Of a stretch of 55,613 bases of DNA, positions 27,639-33,220 are shown one piece after another. The first letter of the stretch is position 1, and every line of letters begins with the position of its first letter. Position numbers and translations under genes: made by a program. The stretch comes from a virus. Taxonomy: Duplodnaviria > Heunggongvirae > Uroviricota > Caudoviricetes. The notes under the pieces are model-generated. The model had not been told where the DNA came from, did not search any database, and was given only the letters and a program-made list of their open reading frames with translations. The DNA lies in IMG/VR virus record IMGVR_UViG_2744054912_000007; one strand, written 5' to 3'.

Positions 27639-29096
27639 TTAGGAGCGCCAAAAAAAACCTGAAAACAATATAATAACAGGATAAATTTCAAGGCGACCAA
27701 GAATCATAGCTATGCACATTAAACATTTTGCAATGTCATTAAGCACTCCGAATGACGATGCAGTAGCCCCAAAACCTAATCCCATATTATTAATACATGC
27801 AGCCACTGTTGCAAATGATGTAAGAAAATCATATCCCATACCATTTAACACCAGTATAAAAAACACCGTGAAGAGAGTATAAAGAAAAAAGAAACTCCAT
27901 ACAGACCTCATTACACGATCTGTAACTATCTTCCCTCCTACATTTACACTCAACAACGCTCTGGGATGAGAAAGCTGATTTATCTCGTGTTTGCTTTGTT
28001 TGAAAAGTATAAGAAATCGAAGTGACTTAATTCCACCACAAGTTGAACCTATACATCCCCCAAAGAAACTTGACAACAGCAAAAACACTATCGTGTGCGT
28101 GGGCCAACTTGCATAATCCTGCGTAGCTAAACCATTATCAGTGAGCATGGAGCTGGCAAGAAAAAACGAATGAATAAAACTTCCATGCAAGTCATACATA
28201 CCTATATGCCAGACCTGGAAAGAGGTAACAATGATCACCCCTAAGGCTATTAACAGAAAGAAACGAAGTTCAATATCTCTGATTAAAGGTTTTATCGTTT
28301 TCCTGCTAATAACAATATACCAAAGAGTGAAGTTGAAAGCCGATAGCAGGGAAAAAGAACCAGCCACCAGCTCAACTAAATAGTTATTAAAATATCCGAT
28401 ACTCTCGCTATGAGTTGAGAAACCACCAAGCGAAACTGTGGAAATCCCGTGACAAATAGCATCAAACAAAGGCATTCCTGCAAGTCTATAACAGACAATA
28501 CAAGCAATACCTAATAAAGAATAAGTTATCCACAGTGTCCGTGACGTATCGGCCAGGCGGGGAGTGAGTTTGTCATCCTTAAATGGCCCCGGCATTTCTG
28601 ACTGATAAAGCTTTGCACCACCAATACCCAATAATGGCAATACAGCAACCGCCAGAACAATAACTCCTAAACCACCTATAAAATTTAACTGTGACCGATA
28701 GTACAAATATGCCCGAGGTAATGAACTAACATCATCAATTACAGTTGCTCCTGTTGTTGTTATTCCAGAAACCCCTTCAAACAGAGCATCAATGAACGTT
28801 AAATTAAGTTCTGAGTCAATCCATAAAGGGAATGCACTAATAACAGAAAACAAAATCCAAAACATTACAATTATAATAAACCCATCACGGGTACGTAATT
28901 GAATGCCAGATTTCTTAGTTGTATACCACGCTCCGCCACCAATGCAAAAAAATATAACGAAAGTTATAAAGAAAACGAACAGGCTTTTTTCTTTATAAAA
29001 CAATGCTACAACCATTGGTGGCAACATTGAAAGACTATAGAGCCAAACCAGGAACCCACACATATGAGTAACAACTCTTACATGAGATGTATTCAT
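27639..29096 (-). CDS. trkG: Trk-system potassium uptake protein TrkG (TrkH family)
   Basis: Polytopic membrane protein with repeated pore-loop-like segments (GxTTTGATV, GxGG). The likely start MNTSHVRVV gives 485 aa, the K-12 TrkG length; the track ORF extends to 29114. The gene and its flanks are visibly AT-rich. Confidence 0.85.
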   Translation of the reverse strand: MNTSHVRVVTHMCGFLVWLYSLSMLPPMVVALFYKEKSLFVFFITFVIFFCIGGGAWYTTKKSGIQLRTRDGFIIIVMFWILFSVISAFPLWIDSELNLTFIDALFEGVSGITTTGATVIDDVSSLPRAYLYYRSQLNFIGGLGVIVLAVAVLPLLGIGGAKLYQSEMPGPFKDDKLTPRLADTSRTLWITYSLLGIACIVCYRLAGMPLFDAICHGISTVSLGGFSTHSESIGYFNNYLVELVAGSFSLLSAFNFTLWYIVISRKTIKPLIRDIELRFFLLIALGVIIVTSFQVWHIGMYDLHGSFIHSFFLASSMLTDNGLATQDYASWPTHTIVFLLLSSFFGGCIGSTCGGIKSLRFLILFKQSKHEINQLSHPRALLSVNVGGKIVTDRVMRSVWSFFFLYTLFTVFFILVLNGMGYDFLTSFATVAACINNMGLGFGATASSFGVLNDIAKCLMCIAMILGRLEIYPVIILFSGFFWRS

Positions 29097-29233
29097 ATCT
29101 AAATATTCTTTCAATTATAACCACCTTGCTGCAATATTATGATTATACTGTATAAAATTTAACTCCTCTTAGATCTTACTTCACTGTTCCTTATGAAACA
29201 ATCATCAAAATAAATCATATTGTAGTTAAGATT

Positions 29234-29698
29234 TTACTTTAAACACTGCTCGGTTATGTATTGCTGAGCACCTTCAAGTTGGGCCTGCATCATTACCAGT
29301 CGTTCCCGGAGGGTGAAATAATCCCGTTCAGCGGTGTCTGCCAGTCGGGGGGAGGCTGCATTATCCACGCCGGAGGCGGTGGTGGCTTCACGCACTGACT
29401 GACAGACTGCTTTGATGTGCAACCGACGACGACCAGCGGCAACATCATCACGCAGAACATCATTTTCAGCTTTCGCATCAGCTAACTCCTTCGTGTATTT
29501 TGCATCGAGCGCAGCAACATCACGCTGACGCATCTGCATGTCAGTAATTGCCGCGTTCGCCAGCTTCAGTTCTCTGGCATTTTTGTCGCGCTGTTCTTTG
29601 TAGGCGATGGCGTTATCACGGTAATGATTAACACCCCATGACAGGCAGACGACGATGCAGATAACCAGAGCGGAGATAATCGCGGTTACTCTGTTCAT
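29234..29698 (-). CDS. Spanin, inner membrane subunit Rz (i-spanin)
   Basis: N-terminal TM helix, coiled-coil periplasmic domain, and the embedded Rz1 in another frame; directly downstream of the endolysin. Confidence 0.85.
29293..29478 (-). CDS. Spanin, outer membrane lipoprotein Rz1 (o-spanin)
   Basis: Fully embedded in Rz in another frame; lipobox (VVGC) and proline-rich PPPPAW region. Confidence 0.85.
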
Positions 29699-30192
29699 TG
29701 CTGACCCCACAAACAGATTTCACGCTCAATCTCACGACGAGTCATGAGACCTTTCCATTGCTTACCGCCAGCATATGTCCAGCGACGTAGCTGATCACAT
29801 GCGCCTTTGATATCGCCCTGGTTTATTTTGCGAAGAAGCGTCGATGTTCTGAAATTGCCAGCACCCACGTTGTAAACGAATGAGTAAAGAGCGCCGCGCG
29901 TTGTTTCCGGTATATCGACTTTGATGTACGGGTTAATTTGTCTGGCGACCGTGGCAAGGTCTTTATTCAGGAGGGCTTTGCATTCTGCTTTGGTATACGT
30001 TTTACCGAGCATGATGTCTTTTCCTGTATGCCCGTGACATACAGTCCATACACCAACAATATCTTTGTATGGTATGTAGCTGACACCTTCCAGACCATCG
30101 TTACCACTTGGGCCAGTGATTAACACTGATGCTATAGCAATTGCTCCGCCACCAATAGCAGCAGCAACGACTTTTCGTAATGATGGAGGCAT
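29695..30192 (-). CDS. SAR endolysin (phage 21 R-like lysozyme), 165 aa
   Basis: N-terminal Gly/Ala-rich weakly hydrophobic SAR segment ([20 protein letters not shown]) followed by a lysozyme-like domain; length equals R21. Confidence 0.85.
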
Positions 30193-30407
30193 TATTCACC
30201 TCTCGCAGCCTTGCGCTTATCTTCTTTAATCTTGAAATAAAGGTTTGTCAGGTACGTCAGCAGGCCAAATACCAGACTACCCAGCACACCGATTGCAGCC
30301 CACTGTGACGGAGTTACTCTATCGAGCAACTGTAAAAACCAGTAGCCAGCACTGCCTGCGGAGGTGCCGTAGGCAATGCCTGTTGAAATTTTGTCCATGG
30401 ATTTCAT
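30192..30407 (-). CDS. Pinholin (phage 21 S-like) with dual-start motif
   Basis: [24 protein letters not shown]... closely matches S21 as I recall it. There are two TM segments, and the Met-Lys-Ser-Met dual start gives antiholin and holin. The track ORF extends upstream to 30464. Confidence 0.85.
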
Positions 30408-30508
30408 AGCCTCACCTCCGCACGGAACGGATGGCATAGTTATTATGTGTAGGCTTTCAGACACATCAATCAGAGCCTTAATTGATATATATGCTGGAGA
30501 CGATGCAA

Positions 30509-30532
30509 TATAAAAAGCTCGCCGTAGCGAGC
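30509..30532 (-). terminator. Intrinsic terminator between the moron lipoprotein genes and the holin
   Basis: Minus-strand GCTCGC-tacg-GCGAGC hairpin followed by TTTTTATATT, about 100 nt upstream of the holin start. Confidence 0.6.
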
Positions 30533-30658
30533 TAATAAAATGTATTTCTCTGATATTATGTTTATTTGTATTAGCTCAGACTTGACATCACAGGTTTCGT
30601 ATATAGAACATCATCAAATCTGTCAGTTTGCTATGAATGAGATATAGTAATTGAAGAG

Positions 30659-31054
30659 CTAACCTCGCATGTCAAAGCCAGATTTCTGAAAATCTCTGTA
30701 GACTTCCGGATTGTTGAAGGCCGGAAATTTGGCTTTATGAGCTGCGGACTTTATCGCTTCGCAATAGGCTTTATCACCGTTACTGGTAGATATTTTTAAC
30801 GCCGTGCCATCCTGAGAGAATTCCATATGCAACCTGCATTTTTTCCCTTTCCAGTTATGCGGCTCATCAAGTTTGGCATTAATTGCAGCTCTGATTCCCC
30901 GCGCTTGCGCCCCCCATTCATCCTGATCATCCCAGCGTCCTGAACTGCAACTACCTGTAGCAGTAGTTTTGTGGCAATCTGAAGGGTGTAAAGGTGTGCA
31001 TCCCGCAACAAAACCGACCCAAAAAGTCAACATAACGATTTTCTTTAATCCCAC
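30659..31054 (-). CDS. Lipoprotein with divergent TolA domain III-like C-terminal domain (moron)
   Basis: Lipobox (FVAGC) and a C-terminal GKKCRL...GD...YCEAI...AKFPAF...PEVYRDFQ pattern paralogous to the adjacent gene. Confidence 0.6.
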   Translation of the reverse strand: MGLKKIVMLTFWVGFVAGCTPLHPSDCHKTTATGSCSSGRWDDQDEWGAQARGIRAAINAKLDEPHNWKGKKCRLHMEFSQDGTALKISTSNGDKAYCEAIKSAAHKAKFPAFNNPEVYRDFQKSGFDMRG

Positions 31055-31204
31055 TTCTTGCTCCTCAATCCATTAAAATCTCAGCAATAGTAGTTGTTAC
31101 GTCCGCCACTGGCTCAGAGCTGACTATCCGCTAAATTTAGCTCAGTGCCGTAGCTGTGTCAGAACAAACCTAAGCCGAAACCGTTTATTACAAAACAATA
31201 AATA

Positions 31205-31633
31205 TCAGGGTTTAAAATCCAGCACCCCATTTTGAAATACTTTATATACTTCCGGCGAAGGGGGGGCAGGTATATCAGCATTCTTTATCGCATTCATCGC
31301 TTCACGACATAAATCGAGGTCTCCACTTTCTCTTTTAACCTCCAGTAGAAGGCCATTCGGGGCCATATGCATTCTCAGTGTACACTCTTTTCCTGAATAC
31401 TTACTCGCATCCCCGAACTGTTTTTCGATGGCGCTCTTGATTTGATGGGCATACAGACGGATATCCTCACTAACATCAGAAGTACGTTCAGATGAACTCA
31501 CATACTGTGTCTCTATTGCTTTATCGGAGTAATATGATGTACGGTCATGATAATTTGTCGATACAGCATCAGTGCACCCGATAATAATCCCACTAATAAT
31601 CAACGTAAGAATTGATGCGCTACGAAAACCCAT
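31205..31633 (-). CDS. Lipoprotein with TolA domain III-like C-terminal domain (moron)
   Basis: Lipobox (IIGC). The C-terminal 85 residues (YAHQIKSAIEKQFGDASKYSGKECTLRMHMAPNGLLLEV...LCREAMNAIKNADIPAPPSPEVYKVFQNGVLDFKP) align almost position by position with the TolA C-terminal domain as I recall it. Confidence 0.65.
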   Translation of the reverse strand: MGFRSASILTLIISGIIIGCTDAVSTNYHDRTSYYSDKAIETQYVSSSERTSDVSEDIRLYAHQIKSAIEKQFGDASKYSGKECTLRMHMAPNGLLLEVKRESGDLDLCREAMNAIKNADIPAPPSPEVYKVFQNGVLDFKP

Positions 31634-31662: not shown

Positions 31663-31692
31663 ATTATATATACCGTTGTTTTGGACGCTCAA
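31663..31692 (-). promoter_or_regulatory. Putative sigma-70 promoter for the lipoprotein moron
   Basis: Minus-strand TTGAGC, an 18-bp spacer, then TATAAT, about 30 nt upstream of the lipoprotein start, which has a GAGGA SD. Confidence 0.45.
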
Positions 31693-32221
31693 ACAGCGAA
31701 TCAGATCAAATAAAACGCACATTTGTTAACATTTACACAAAGTCTGCGTGGGATATTCTGAAAGAATATCCATAATGTGGAGAGAATCTATTGAAGTGCA
31801 TGGTGCCGGGTGCCTCCCGGTGAACAAAATGTTCGTGATACCTGTCGGCGACAGAAAAGGTTAATGGTATCACCCCACCGCACAGGGGGATTCACCATGC
31901 AGGAGTTTTCTTAGCAAACTCACTGCGCGCCCGGCAACTCCCAACCACATAAAATGCGGAGTTTGTGGTATTTATGCATATAACTCGCAGGAATTATCTT
32001 AAAAAACTGATGTCGATCCGGATTAAAAAGAAGCAGGTCATCATCAGATGACTGGAAAAAAGGAAAACAAAAAATACTCATCATACAGTTTTGATTGCAG
32101 GGATGAGCCTGCTATGCACAATATGCAGAATATAAGCAAGATAAAAATATGCAGGCATATTATTTCGGATTTTGTTATTAACACAACCTTTTTAATAATC
32201 ATTTGGCATACAATAAACCAG

Positions 32222-32250
32222 CCCAAAAAGAACCGCCTAAACAGGCGGTT
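32222..32250 (-). terminator. Intrinsic terminator in the Q-to-lysis leader
   Basis: Perfect palindrome AACCGCC-taaaca-GGCGGTT followed on the minus strand by CTTTTTG. Confidence 0.5.
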
Positions 32251-32570
32251 GGTCAATACAAAGGATGCTTCGTCTTTATTATAGTAATCTGAGGCGTCGG
32301 GTGTCTTGTATCAGACAACATATTGTCCCGCTAAACAGCGAATTACAAACCACCCTGCAATGATCTCTCATCTCATTTTATATGAGTTGACGACATCAGG
32401 ATAACGCATCATCAGCCCCTGCCAAGAAATATCAAAACTCCCGCCAGCAATGTGTTATCACAATATTGTAAAAAAAACACAGCACCGAAACTATAACTGG
32501 TCTCTGTTATAATTTGGAGCAGAAAGACCAGTTGCCCAACTAGCAGCATTCTCCCCTGCTTTCCTGACGT

Positions 32571-32597
32571 AAAAAAACCGCATTAAGCGGTTTTTTT
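32571..32597 (-). terminator. Bidirectional hairpin about 90 nt downstream of Q (candidate tR'-like terminator)
   Basis: AAAAAAACCGC-attaa-GCGGTTTTTTT; position is analogous to lambda tR', where Q antitermination acts. Confidence 0.5.
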
Positions 32598-32677: not shown

Positions 32678-33220
32678 TCAAGCCATTTTCTCAGCAAATG
32701 ATTCACGCATGGGAATATATAGGGCATACTCAGCAACAGCTAACCAATTAGCAATCCGTTTTTCGCATGTGCTAAAACACCACTCTGGGTGTGCATCATT
32801 TAGCAATTCAGCCATTTTGCGCTTAGTCATCCCCCGCCCTTCATAGCGTTGCCGGAGAATGCAAATCAATCCTGGATGCTCTGCCAGCACCTCACTTATG
32901 ACTCGATCAATACATAACGCCTCTGCATCAGTACAATGCGCCAGCCAGCTCTTTTGCTTGCCGTTGATCATCTCTCGCAAAAACGCTTCCAGCTCAGCTT
33001 TCTCTATTCCCGCTTTTTTCATTCTGCGCAGGGCTTCATTAATGGCTGTTTTCGTCAGTTTTTTGGATGCCAACAACTGATTGAACATATTCCCTGACCT
33101 GCCACCGCCAATATACGACCAGCGCCCCCACATACGTAGTTTTCCCTGAATCCAGACACTTTCCAGCGTGGTGAGGCGAAGGTGTTCTCCGCTTTTTCCT
33201 GTATTCGTTGGGTAAATCAT
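32678..33220 (-). CDS. Putative late-gene antitermination protein Q
   Basis: Synteny only: the gene directly follows the nin-like genes and precedes the late leader and lysis genes. The family was not verified. Confidence 0.55.
   Translation of the reverse strand: MIYPTNTGKSGEHLRLTTLESVWIQGKLRMWGRWSYIGGGRSGNMFNQLLASKKLTKTAINEALRRMKKAGIEKAELEAFLREMINGKQKSWLAHCTDAEALCIDRVISEVLAEHPGLICILRQRYEGRGMTKRKMAELLNDAHPEWCFSTCEKRIANWLAVAEYALYIPMRESFAEKMA

Follow-up and report, generated by a model that had tools for sequence, protein, structure and literature searches.

Tandem lipoproteins with a TolA domain III homologue in a Rac-family prophage, candidate decoys for Tol-dependent colicins and filamentous phages

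The 55,613-nucleotide stretch of viral DNA analyzed here (Caudoviricetes; IMG/VR record IMGVR_UViG_2744054912_000007; referred to below as the window) carries two tandem genes between a gene for a Q-like antiterminator and the holin gene. The two open reading frames (ORFs), designated ORF A and ORF B, each encode a predicted lipoprotein in which a short tether leads into a domain homologous, by sequence and predicted structure, to domain III of TolA (TolA-III). Both genes are under purifying selection. As to their function, we give even odds to the proposal that the two proteins are outer-membrane-tethered, non-energized decoys for Tol-dependent colicins and for the gene 3 protein (g3p) of filamentous phages. 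A first-pass annotation of the window had called two minus-strand genes at this position and assigned both products a lipoprotein signal peptide; both calls were borne out, and the layout of the genes is as follows.

31205..31633, minus strand: ORF A; ATG start, 142 residues; predicted outer-membrane lipoprotein with lipid-anchor Cys20 and Thr at position +2; residues 21-49, low-confidence and likely disordered linker; residues 50-142, TolA domain III
30659..31054, minus strand: ORF B; GTG start, 131 residues; predicted outer-membrane lipoprotein with lipid-anchor Cys19 and Thr at position +2; N-terminal Cys-containing conserved stretch PLHPSxCHKTTATGSCSSGRWDDQDEWG; residues about 46-131, TolA domain III

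Homology to TolA domain III

The only strong Pfam match of both proteins was the TolA C-terminal domain, PF06519, which was found at residues 49-140 of ORF A (82.6 bits, E = 2.4e-23) and residues 44-125 of ORF B (54.6 bits, E = 1.3e-14), both well above the gathering score of 25. When the sequences of the PDB were searched with ORF A using phmmer, E. coli TolA-III entries were retrieved at E of about 5e-28. Residues 57-142 of ORF A align with E. coli TolA 336-421 without a gap up to the C-terminus at 60% identity (52/86). ORF B is 34% identical to TolA 344-420, and the two proteins are 29% identical to each other. C363 and C388 of TolA form a disulfide pair, and their counterparts, C84 and C109 in ORF A and C73 and C98 in ORF B, are invariant across 27 sequences. 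ORF A ends in VLDFKP, which makes its terminal strand LDFKP identical to that of TolA; the C-terminus of ORF B, GFDMRG, keeps the Asp, replaces Lys with Arg and is also predicted to form a strand.

AlphaFold models of the two proteins, built from input alignments of 27 to 35 sequences, agree with this assignment. For ORF A the predicted local distance difference test score (pLDDT) exceeded 90 over residues 50-142, and for ORF B the block means were 83-96 from residue 41 onward; the linkers scored below 50 in both models. Both models have their secondary-structure elements in the order known from TolA-III: helix, two strands, helices, C-terminal strand. When the PDB was searched with Foldseek, the best match of the ORF A model was chain 2x9a_B, TolA-III from its complex with the g3p of phage IF1, with a template modelling (TM) score of 0.96 and a root mean square deviation of 0.6 Å, and that of the ORF B model was 3qdp, with a TM score of 0.92 and a deviation of 1.1 Å. 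For both models the E. coli TolA-III structures ranked first, those of Vibrio and Pseudomonas came next, and TonB C-terminal domains appeared only after these. The likeness to the TolA C-terminal domain claimed in the first-pass annotation was thus upheld by profile, PDB sequence matches and predicted structure, the last being the check that it had proposed. Its term "mimic", on the other hand, is wrong for ORF A, because the protein is 60% identical to TolA 336-421 and keeps both cysteines and the LDFKP strand. Judged by sequence and model together, ORF A and ORF B are homologues of TolA domain III, not mimics. A closer donor for ORF A among full-length TolA proteins was sought and rejected: the nearest representatives, from Enterobacter, Kosakonia, Pantoea and insect endosymbionts, are 41-55% identical to it, and none exceeds the 60% of E. 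coli TolA.

Outside domain III the resemblance to TolA ends. Where TolA has the transmembrane anchor that couples it to TolQR, ORF A and ORF B have a cleavable lipoprotein signal peptide, and the long helical domain II that spans the periplasm is absent from both. The NCBIfam TolA models TIGR02794 and NF007065 are accordingly matched at their C-terminal ends only (profile positions 265-362 of 362 and 293-386 of 387, respectively), and the genes lie between the Q-like gene and the holin gene rather than in a tol-pal operon. Because the membrane anchor and domain II are lacking, neither protein can be expected to couple to TolQR.

This architecture has misled automated annotation. ORF A scores 75.6 bits against TIGR02794, for which the cut-off is 59.45, and because this domain-only match exceeds the cut-off, the NCBI Prokaryotic Genome Annotation Pipeline (PGAP) calls the gene "tolA". 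It does so inconsistently: one and the same sequence is entered for SE11 as "cell envelope integrity protein TolA" but for ECCHD184 as a truncated pseudogene of tolA that lacks the N-terminus. We also noticed the misleading TolA name on many unrelated short lipoproteins of Serratia, Kosakonia, Rahnella and Klebsiella. Whatever the function turns out to be, hundreds of short proteins are labelled "cell envelope integrity protein TolA" or pseudogene and are neither.

The signal peptides were assessed at the sequence level with the lipobox pattern [LVI][ASTVI][GAS]C. The N-terminus of ORF A reads MGFRSASILTLIISGIIIG-C20-TD, with a charged n-region (R4), a hydrophobic core and the lipobox IIG-C20; that of ORF B reads MGLKKIVMLTFWVGFVAG-C19-TP, with a charged n-region (K4, K5), a hydrophobic core and the lipobox VAG-C19. 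The lipid-anchor cysteine is invariant in the family alignment of the two proteins. For ORF B, PGAP places the start at an internal Met, giving a protein of 124 residues. We prefer the GTG start because it is preceded by a GAGGAG Shine-Dalgarno sequence, because it supplies the charged n-region, and because the start codons of seven homologous loci (phage, plasmids and four other genera) fall in one alignment column. Following cleavage by signal peptidase II, sorting to the inner face of the outer membrane is most likely for both proteins, since neither has Asp at position +2. Between the lipid-anchor cysteine and domain III, each has 25-35 residues of low-confidence linker.

In the ORF B family the conserved N-terminal stretch (residues 19-38, window 30939-31000) is almost invariant across genera and includes two extra cysteines, and AlphaFold gives residues 1-38 a pLDDT below 50. 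That a "linker" should be so conserved suggests that it may have a binding function of its own. Colicin TolB boxes have the form DGSGW...W, and a TolB-box reading of this stretch, SSGRWDDQDEWG, was considered and rejected: the key Asp and Ser positions are out of register, the Trp spacing is 6 rather than 7, and in the AlphaFold model residues 40-47 open the folded domain.

Selection, spread and prophage setting

Selection on the two genes was estimated by pairwise Nei-Gojobori comparison of the nonsynonymous and synonymous substitution rates (dN and dS), with the following results.

ORF B, TolA-III domain: dN/dS 0.06-0.10, dS 0.43-0.81
ORF A, TolA-III domain: dN/dS 0.25, dS 0.43
ORF A, signal peptide and linker: dN/dS 0.46, dS 0.89

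Purifying selection is evident on both genes. Given these low ratios and the finding that A is followed by B in all 77 of the Rac-like IMG/VR contigs with enough sequence (the IMG/VR matches being near-identical Rac-type contigs only), the genes are functional. Of 5,426 complete E. coli genomes, 774 have the 1.4-kb region holding the pair covered to at least 80%, and one record in the isolated-phage collection, mEp460_ev081, has the pair.

The two genes also occur apart. The A type appears restricted to E. coli and Shigella, to which all of its named relatives (46 clusters) belong. A version 66% identical to ORF A occurs by itself in another lambdoid prophage. The gene order there is lambda-type Q gene; genes for a TfpB-domain protein, an unannotated 65-residue protein and an AraC-type protein; tRNA-Met and tRNA-Arg; the A-type gene, which has a terminator of its own; a nanS-p-like esterase gene; and holin. 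This is exactly the position of stx in the phages that encode Shiga toxin (Stx), which bears out the assertion of the first-pass annotation that the pair occupies the slot in which Stx phages keep their toxin genes.

ORF B is not phage-specific but a mobile one-gene cassette of roughly 550-650 bp. Homology among its copies sets in 40-190 nt ahead of the start codon, at a point that varies from copy to copy, and ceases a few tens of nucleotides past the stop codon; the copies share 87-88% nucleotide and 78-89% protein identity. It is found on about 600 plasmids. On pO157 it lies between toxB and the hok/psiAB leading region, and in all five of the I-complex conjugative plasmids sampled (IncK2/Z and IncI1/B/O) it shares the strand of the relaxase gene nikB and follows it at a distance of 68 nt, where it looks like the third gene of the nikAB operon at the origin of transfer. 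In the chromosomes of Enterobacter, Citrobacter, Serratia and Klebsiella oxytoca, lone B genes are found at sites that differ and are unrelated to each other. Some chromosomal copies have defence-type or prophage-remnant genes as neighbours: GmrSD (GmrSD_N) and HEPN genes in Serratia, and DinI and an HSDR_N gene near icd in Kosakonia.

A third type of TolA-III lipoprotein, of 144 residues with the lipobox LITA-C and the C-terminus ALDFRL, is encoded on Klebsiella IncF conjugative plasmids, and by tblastn a weaker match class (35% identity) of this type was found on about 310 plasmids, mostly of Klebsiella and Enterobacter. On the K. pneumoniae IncFIB/IncFII plasmid pMR0617ctx (locus L004, 4217-5246), its gene directly follows one for a secreted thioredoxin-fold protein. 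An exhaustive HMMER search with ORF A returned 333 representatives of 50%-identity clusters at E of 0.001 or below, and architecture was counted in the nearest 146. Sixty-eight of these are 105-175 residues long; a lipobox is present in 46 of the 68, with Asp at +2 in none of the 46, and about eight further short representatives have ordinary secretion signals. Named hosts in this wider group are Serratia, Kosakonia, Rahnella, Klebsiella and Dryocola. The combination of a lipoprotein signal and TolA-III is therefore, as read from these sequences, a recurrent architecture found in at least 46 further clusters and not an accident of one prophage.

The prophage in the window is of the Rac family, an assignment made because the identical region in annotated genomes carries the Rac genes intR, xisR, ralR, recET, kilR, sieB, ydaT-family and related early genes, and trkG, and adjoins ompN and uspF. 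It is fuller than the K-12 Rac remnant, which we take to have lost the Q-to-holin segment with these two genes. The prophage extends from about 10400 to 51800 of the window and has a P22-type capsid module. The features around the pair are listed below in the order of transcription.

32678..33220, minus strand: Q-like antiterminator gene, DUF1133 family; phrog_753 "anti-termination protein Q-like", E = 2e-79; upstream boundary of the slot
32307..32278, minus strand: pR'-like promoter, AAGACA-18-TATAAT, 10 of 12 consensus positions
32250..32231, minus strand: tR'-like terminator hairpin, 8-bp stem and T-run; -14.3 kcal/mol, z = -1.9
31744..31930, minus strand: STnc100-type element resembling a small RNA; Rfam RF02076, full-length, 86.6 bits against a gathering score of 47, E = 3e-19
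31663..31692, minus strand: sigma-70 promoter-like site, TTGAGC-18-TATAAT, 10 of 12 positions, about 30 nt upstream of ORF A
31055..31204, minus strand: spacer between ORF A and ORF B, 150 nt; its ends show homology to the DNA that precedes the B cassette at other loci (7-locus alignment)
30506..30533, minus strand: intrinsic terminator in the gap between ORF B and holin; hairpin 30533..30516 with a 7-bp stem, 5 G-C pairs and TTTTT
29234..30464, minus strand: lysis cassette, downstream boundary of the slot
30192..30464 (PGAP start 30407), minus strand: holin gene by PHROG match, essD in PGAP
29695..30192, minus strand: endolysin gene by PHROG match, rrrD in PGAP
29234..29710, minus strand: Rz gene, PHROG Rz-like spanin
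29293..29478, minus strand: Rz1 gene, embedded 61-residue ORF with a lipobox-like signal sequence (VVGC)
27639..29114, minus strand: trkG by PGAP

PGAP likewise assigns the identical SE11 gene to the DUF1133 family, and the PHROG matches for holin, endolysin and Rz-like spanin range from E = 2e-37 to 1e-77, the PGAP names in the cassette being essD, rrrD and "lysis protein". The slot between Q and holin is thus as the first-pass annotation described it. From its position after Q, the segment 32231..32307 is presumed to hold the start of the late transcript (pR'/tR'). The pair lies within this Q-dependent late transcript and is also bracketed by a possible promoter and a terminator of its own. 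The terminator, predicted earlier at 30509-30532, was recovered as the hairpin and T-run listed above (-13 kcal/mol, z = -4.46), and none of 200 shuffled sequences was as stable. The promoter fared less well: a site matching the consensus is indeed present at 31663-31692, but the scan turned up 11 promoter-like sites in the region against 6.9 expected by chance, which falls short of proving that the pair has its own promoter. The exact 30-mer of this site recurs in 73 of 80 related IMG/VR loci, the spacer between the genes is identical in length in 76 of 77 loci, and the scan predicted no terminator within the spacer.

Some smaller observations concern the same region. The STnc100-like element lies between tR' and the promoter-like site of ORF A, and the 3' terminator hairpin of the consensus is replaced in it. 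In two related loci with a diverged A-type gene, sequence resembling the 3' half of the STnc100 consensus, its terminator hairpin included, was seen by eye downstream of the gene. Just past the stop codon of Q, at 32572-32597, a hairpin with an A-run and a T-run, AAAAAAACCGCTTAATGCGGTTTTTTT, looks like a bidirectional terminator; each of the two strands has weak isrK-like Rfam matches overlapping it, with scores of about 20-22 bits where the gathering score is 50.

A decoy role and its alternatives

According to the decoy proposal, ORF A and ORF B would be held at the inner face of the outer membrane on a tether of 25-35 residues, which is where the translocation domains of colicins and the N1 domain of g3p (g3p-N1) would emerge before meeting the real TolA. 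A ligand captured there would remain in a dead-end complex because the two proteins are uncoupled from TolQR. Cells would thereby tolerate Tol-dependent (group A) bacteriocins and exclude filamentous phages that depend on TolA, to the benefit of the lysogen and equally of a plasmid or chromosome carrying the B cassette. A periplasmic decoy giving superinfection exclusion or colicin tolerance had been suggested in the first-pass annotation, and we consider it a reasonable idea and the most parsimonious reading.

Published work on TolA-III provides a basis for such capture. The g3p-N1 domain, colicin N and the TolB N-terminus all bind it by beta-strand addition to beta3 (residues 415-420, with L417, D418 and K420), and a proline at D418 or K420 abolishes this binding (PMC4339652). 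The strand is preserved in ORF A, and its Asp in ORF B. Colicin A binds on the other face, to L375-P380, and makes cation-pi contacts with K368, K379 and K396 (PMC3365938). In the converse experiment, with g3p-N1 or full pIII in the periplasm, cells become resistant both to colicin A and to the uptake of phage (PMC10424213). The affinities of TolA-III are about 1 µM for colicin N and g3p and about 40 µM for TolB; with parasite ligands binding tighter than TolB, a decoy could trap invaders at low cost to the cell. By alignment, the counterparts of K368, K379 and K396 are H, K and K in ORF A and E, S and H in ORF B; two of the three lysines are retained in ORF A, and the surface of ORF B is different. 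These different contact residues for colicin A imply different specificities, so that the paralogues probably cover different ligand sets, and having two of them would widen the range of ligands captured. There is also an experimental precedent: in 1993 Levengood-Freyermuth, Click and Webster reportedly saw wild-type E. coli become tolerant to colicins E1, E2, E3 and A when TolA-III was secreted free into its periplasm.

The carriers fit a role in defence. A plasmid that builds I-type or F-type pili faces filamentous phages for which TolA is required; the B cassette directly follows the relaxase gene in the five sampled I-complex plasmids, and the third lipoprotein type is carried by Klebsiella IncF plasmids. 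The GmrSD and HEPN neighbours of the Serratia cassette fit as well. I pili are the receptor of phage IF1. The complex of IF1 g3p with TolA-III is a solved structure (2X9A). The purifying selection on both genes and the recurrence of the architecture likewise speak for the proposal. A wider version of the proposal, which we put forward tentatively and a little short of an even chance, is that stand-alone TolA-III lipoproteins constitute a widespread and unrecognized receptor-decoy defence that neutralizes Tol-dependent bacteriocins and filamentous phages, with prophages, conjugative plasmids and chromosomal islets of Enterobacterales as its carriers. I-complex and F-type plasmids would carry it to offset the vulnerability created by their own pili, and the Rac pair would be a two-specificity form.

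Several points weigh against a decoy. The first concerns sequence: ORF B is 34% identical to E. coli TolA-III and yet 78-89% identical across genera, and because its cross-genus identity exceeds its identity to TolA, it does not track the TolA of each host as a pure mimic should. The second concerns cost, in that the free periplasmic TolA-III of the 1993 study reportedly also made cells leaky. The remainder concern expression and precedent. The lysogen promoter of ORF A is a candidate identified by consensus match, and cross-context conservation cannot support it because the DNA upstream of the diverged A-type gene in other prophages is unrelated and holds tRNA genes. The label of classic lysogen-expressed moron given in the first-pass annotation therefore holds in part. 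Insertion into the slot and the terminator stand, and the genes behave as morons in lying between conserved modules with variable presence (the A type alone in another Q-to-S context, B in non-phage contexts); lysogen expression is a putative feature, read from one consensus promoter match for a pair that is also part of the late transcript. The sole hint on expression is of late, lytic induction: a CP-933O gene linked by its authors to TolA, whose homology to ORF A and ORF B is unconfirmed, rose 32-fold with ciprofloxacin in EDL933 (PMC11125564). Finally, full-text literature searches found no functional study of phage-, plasmid- or island-borne TolA-III lipoproteins, and no PADLOC model matched ORF A or ORF B at E up to 1.

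Late expression would suit a different role, which we regard as unlikely, namely that the pair modulates the Tol-Pal system. Tethered TolA-III would titrate the TolB N-terminus, Pal and CpoB and act as a dominant negative, loosening the outer membrane for late lysis, vesiculation or the release of phage or periplasmic cargo. The engineered periplasmic domain reportedly caused leakage and deoxycholate sensitivity (Levengood-Freyermuth, 1993), which counts for this role. The position of the pair in the Q-dependent late transcript, just upstream of the holin, endolysin and spanin genes, favors it as well, but a terminator separates the pair from these genes and the phage is already equipped with a complete set of holin, endolysin and spanin. 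The induction of the CP-933O gene, with the same reservation about homology, is a further point in its favor (PMC11125564). The TolB site is beta3, which ORF A keeps exactly (PMC4339652), yet the affinity of TolA for TolB is weak, at about 40 µM. In addition, B is under strong purifying selection on plasmids and chromosomes that have no lysis genes nearby, where chronic envelope damage would be costly.

We consider it improbable that the proteins are accessories to DNA transfer, in which case the lipoprotein would dock on Tol-Pal to aid conjugation, entry exclusion, or the entry or exit of phage DNA. The fixed position of B behind nikB in the five sampled I-complex plasmids suggests such a role, as does the location of the pO157 copy near leading-region psiAB and hok, but lone B cassettes reside in chromosomes without transfer genes and the prophage pair lies outside the modules for DNA packaging or injection. 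Neither I-type nor F-type conjugation is known to require TolA, and this too counts against a transfer function. Least credible by far is a captured tolA 3' end without a role, a reading for which one could cite the PGAP flag of an incomplete tolA pseudogene in ECCHD184 and the presumed absence of the region from K-12 Rac, and which is effectively refuted by the data on selection and recurrence: both ORFs are intact and have newly acquired lipoprotein signal peptides, dN/dS is 0.06-0.25 at dS of up to 0.8, the pair is intact in 77 of 77 loci and in 774 complete genomes, and the architecture occurs in at least 46 separate clusters. The probability left over belongs to functions outside these explanations.

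If the decoy proposal is correct, about one in seven sequenced E. coli strains is equipped with a factor that alters its response to group A colicins and to Ff- or If1-type phages, and the pO157 virulence plasmid and many I-complex resistance plasmids would carry such a factor as well. Antimicrobials based on bacteriocins or phages would be affected, as would the curing of resistance plasmids with pilus-specific phages and the hosts employed for phage display. Imitation of a co-receptor would also join the exclusion lipoproteins that block the receptor itself as a new defence logic. The biology would not surprise a Tol specialist, yet the genes are widespread and the proposal is cheap to test.

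Comparison with known systems

The similarity to TolA-III is already on record in Pfam, in PGAP ("TolA C-terminal domain-containing protein") and in RAST ("TolA protein"), and the biology of these lipoproteins is apparently unstudied. In PHROG, both proteins match phrog_5772 ("unknown function") and, weakly, other families of unknown function, and their models had no significant match among the BFVD viral structures.

The nearest relative in structure is E. coli TolA domain III itself (residues about 329-421; 1TOL, 2X9A, 3QDP/3QDR and 1S62). Its fold of three helices and a three-stranded sheet is common to ORF A and ORF B, as are both cysteines, with overall identities of 60% and 34%, respectively, and with the beta3 strand LDFKP identical in ORF A. 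TolA has a transmembrane anchor, domain II and a tol-pal context, whereas the two lipoproteins have a signal peptide and a short tether instead. The engineered periplasmic TolA-III fragment of 1993 is the direct experimental analogue, being likewise an isolated, exported domain present beside normal TolA. That fragment was reportedly soluble, overproduced, identical to the host domain and leak-causing, whereas ORF A and ORF B are predicted to be lipid-anchored, are diverged, and are presumably expressed at a tuned level.

With respect to genome position, the parallel is with the Q-to-S morons of Stx phages (stxAB with nanS-p). The A-type gene occupies the same slot, and the pair in the window has a predicted promoter and terminator. 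The Stx-phage morons carry toxins, however, and the cargo here is unrelated to them and, in the case of B, is also found on plasmids and chromosomes. Immunity conferred by g3p of filamentous phages involves the same interaction between g3p-N1 and TolA-III (PMC10424213). The logic is reversed: in g3p immunity it is the host TolA that is occupied, whereas ORF A and ORF B would bind g3p or colicin as it arrives.

Small outer-membrane exclusion lipoproteins of mobile elements are well known. Cor (phi80, N15 and HK022), Llp (T5) and TraT (F) block competitors from the periplasmic side, and Cor and Llp do so by inactivating the receptor FhuA. ORF A and ORF B have no sequence relationship to them and, rather than acting on a receptor, would imitate a periplasmic co-receptor and trap its ligand. 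The closest known kind is thus the exclusion or tolerance lipoprotein, here in a form that would imitate the co-receptor.

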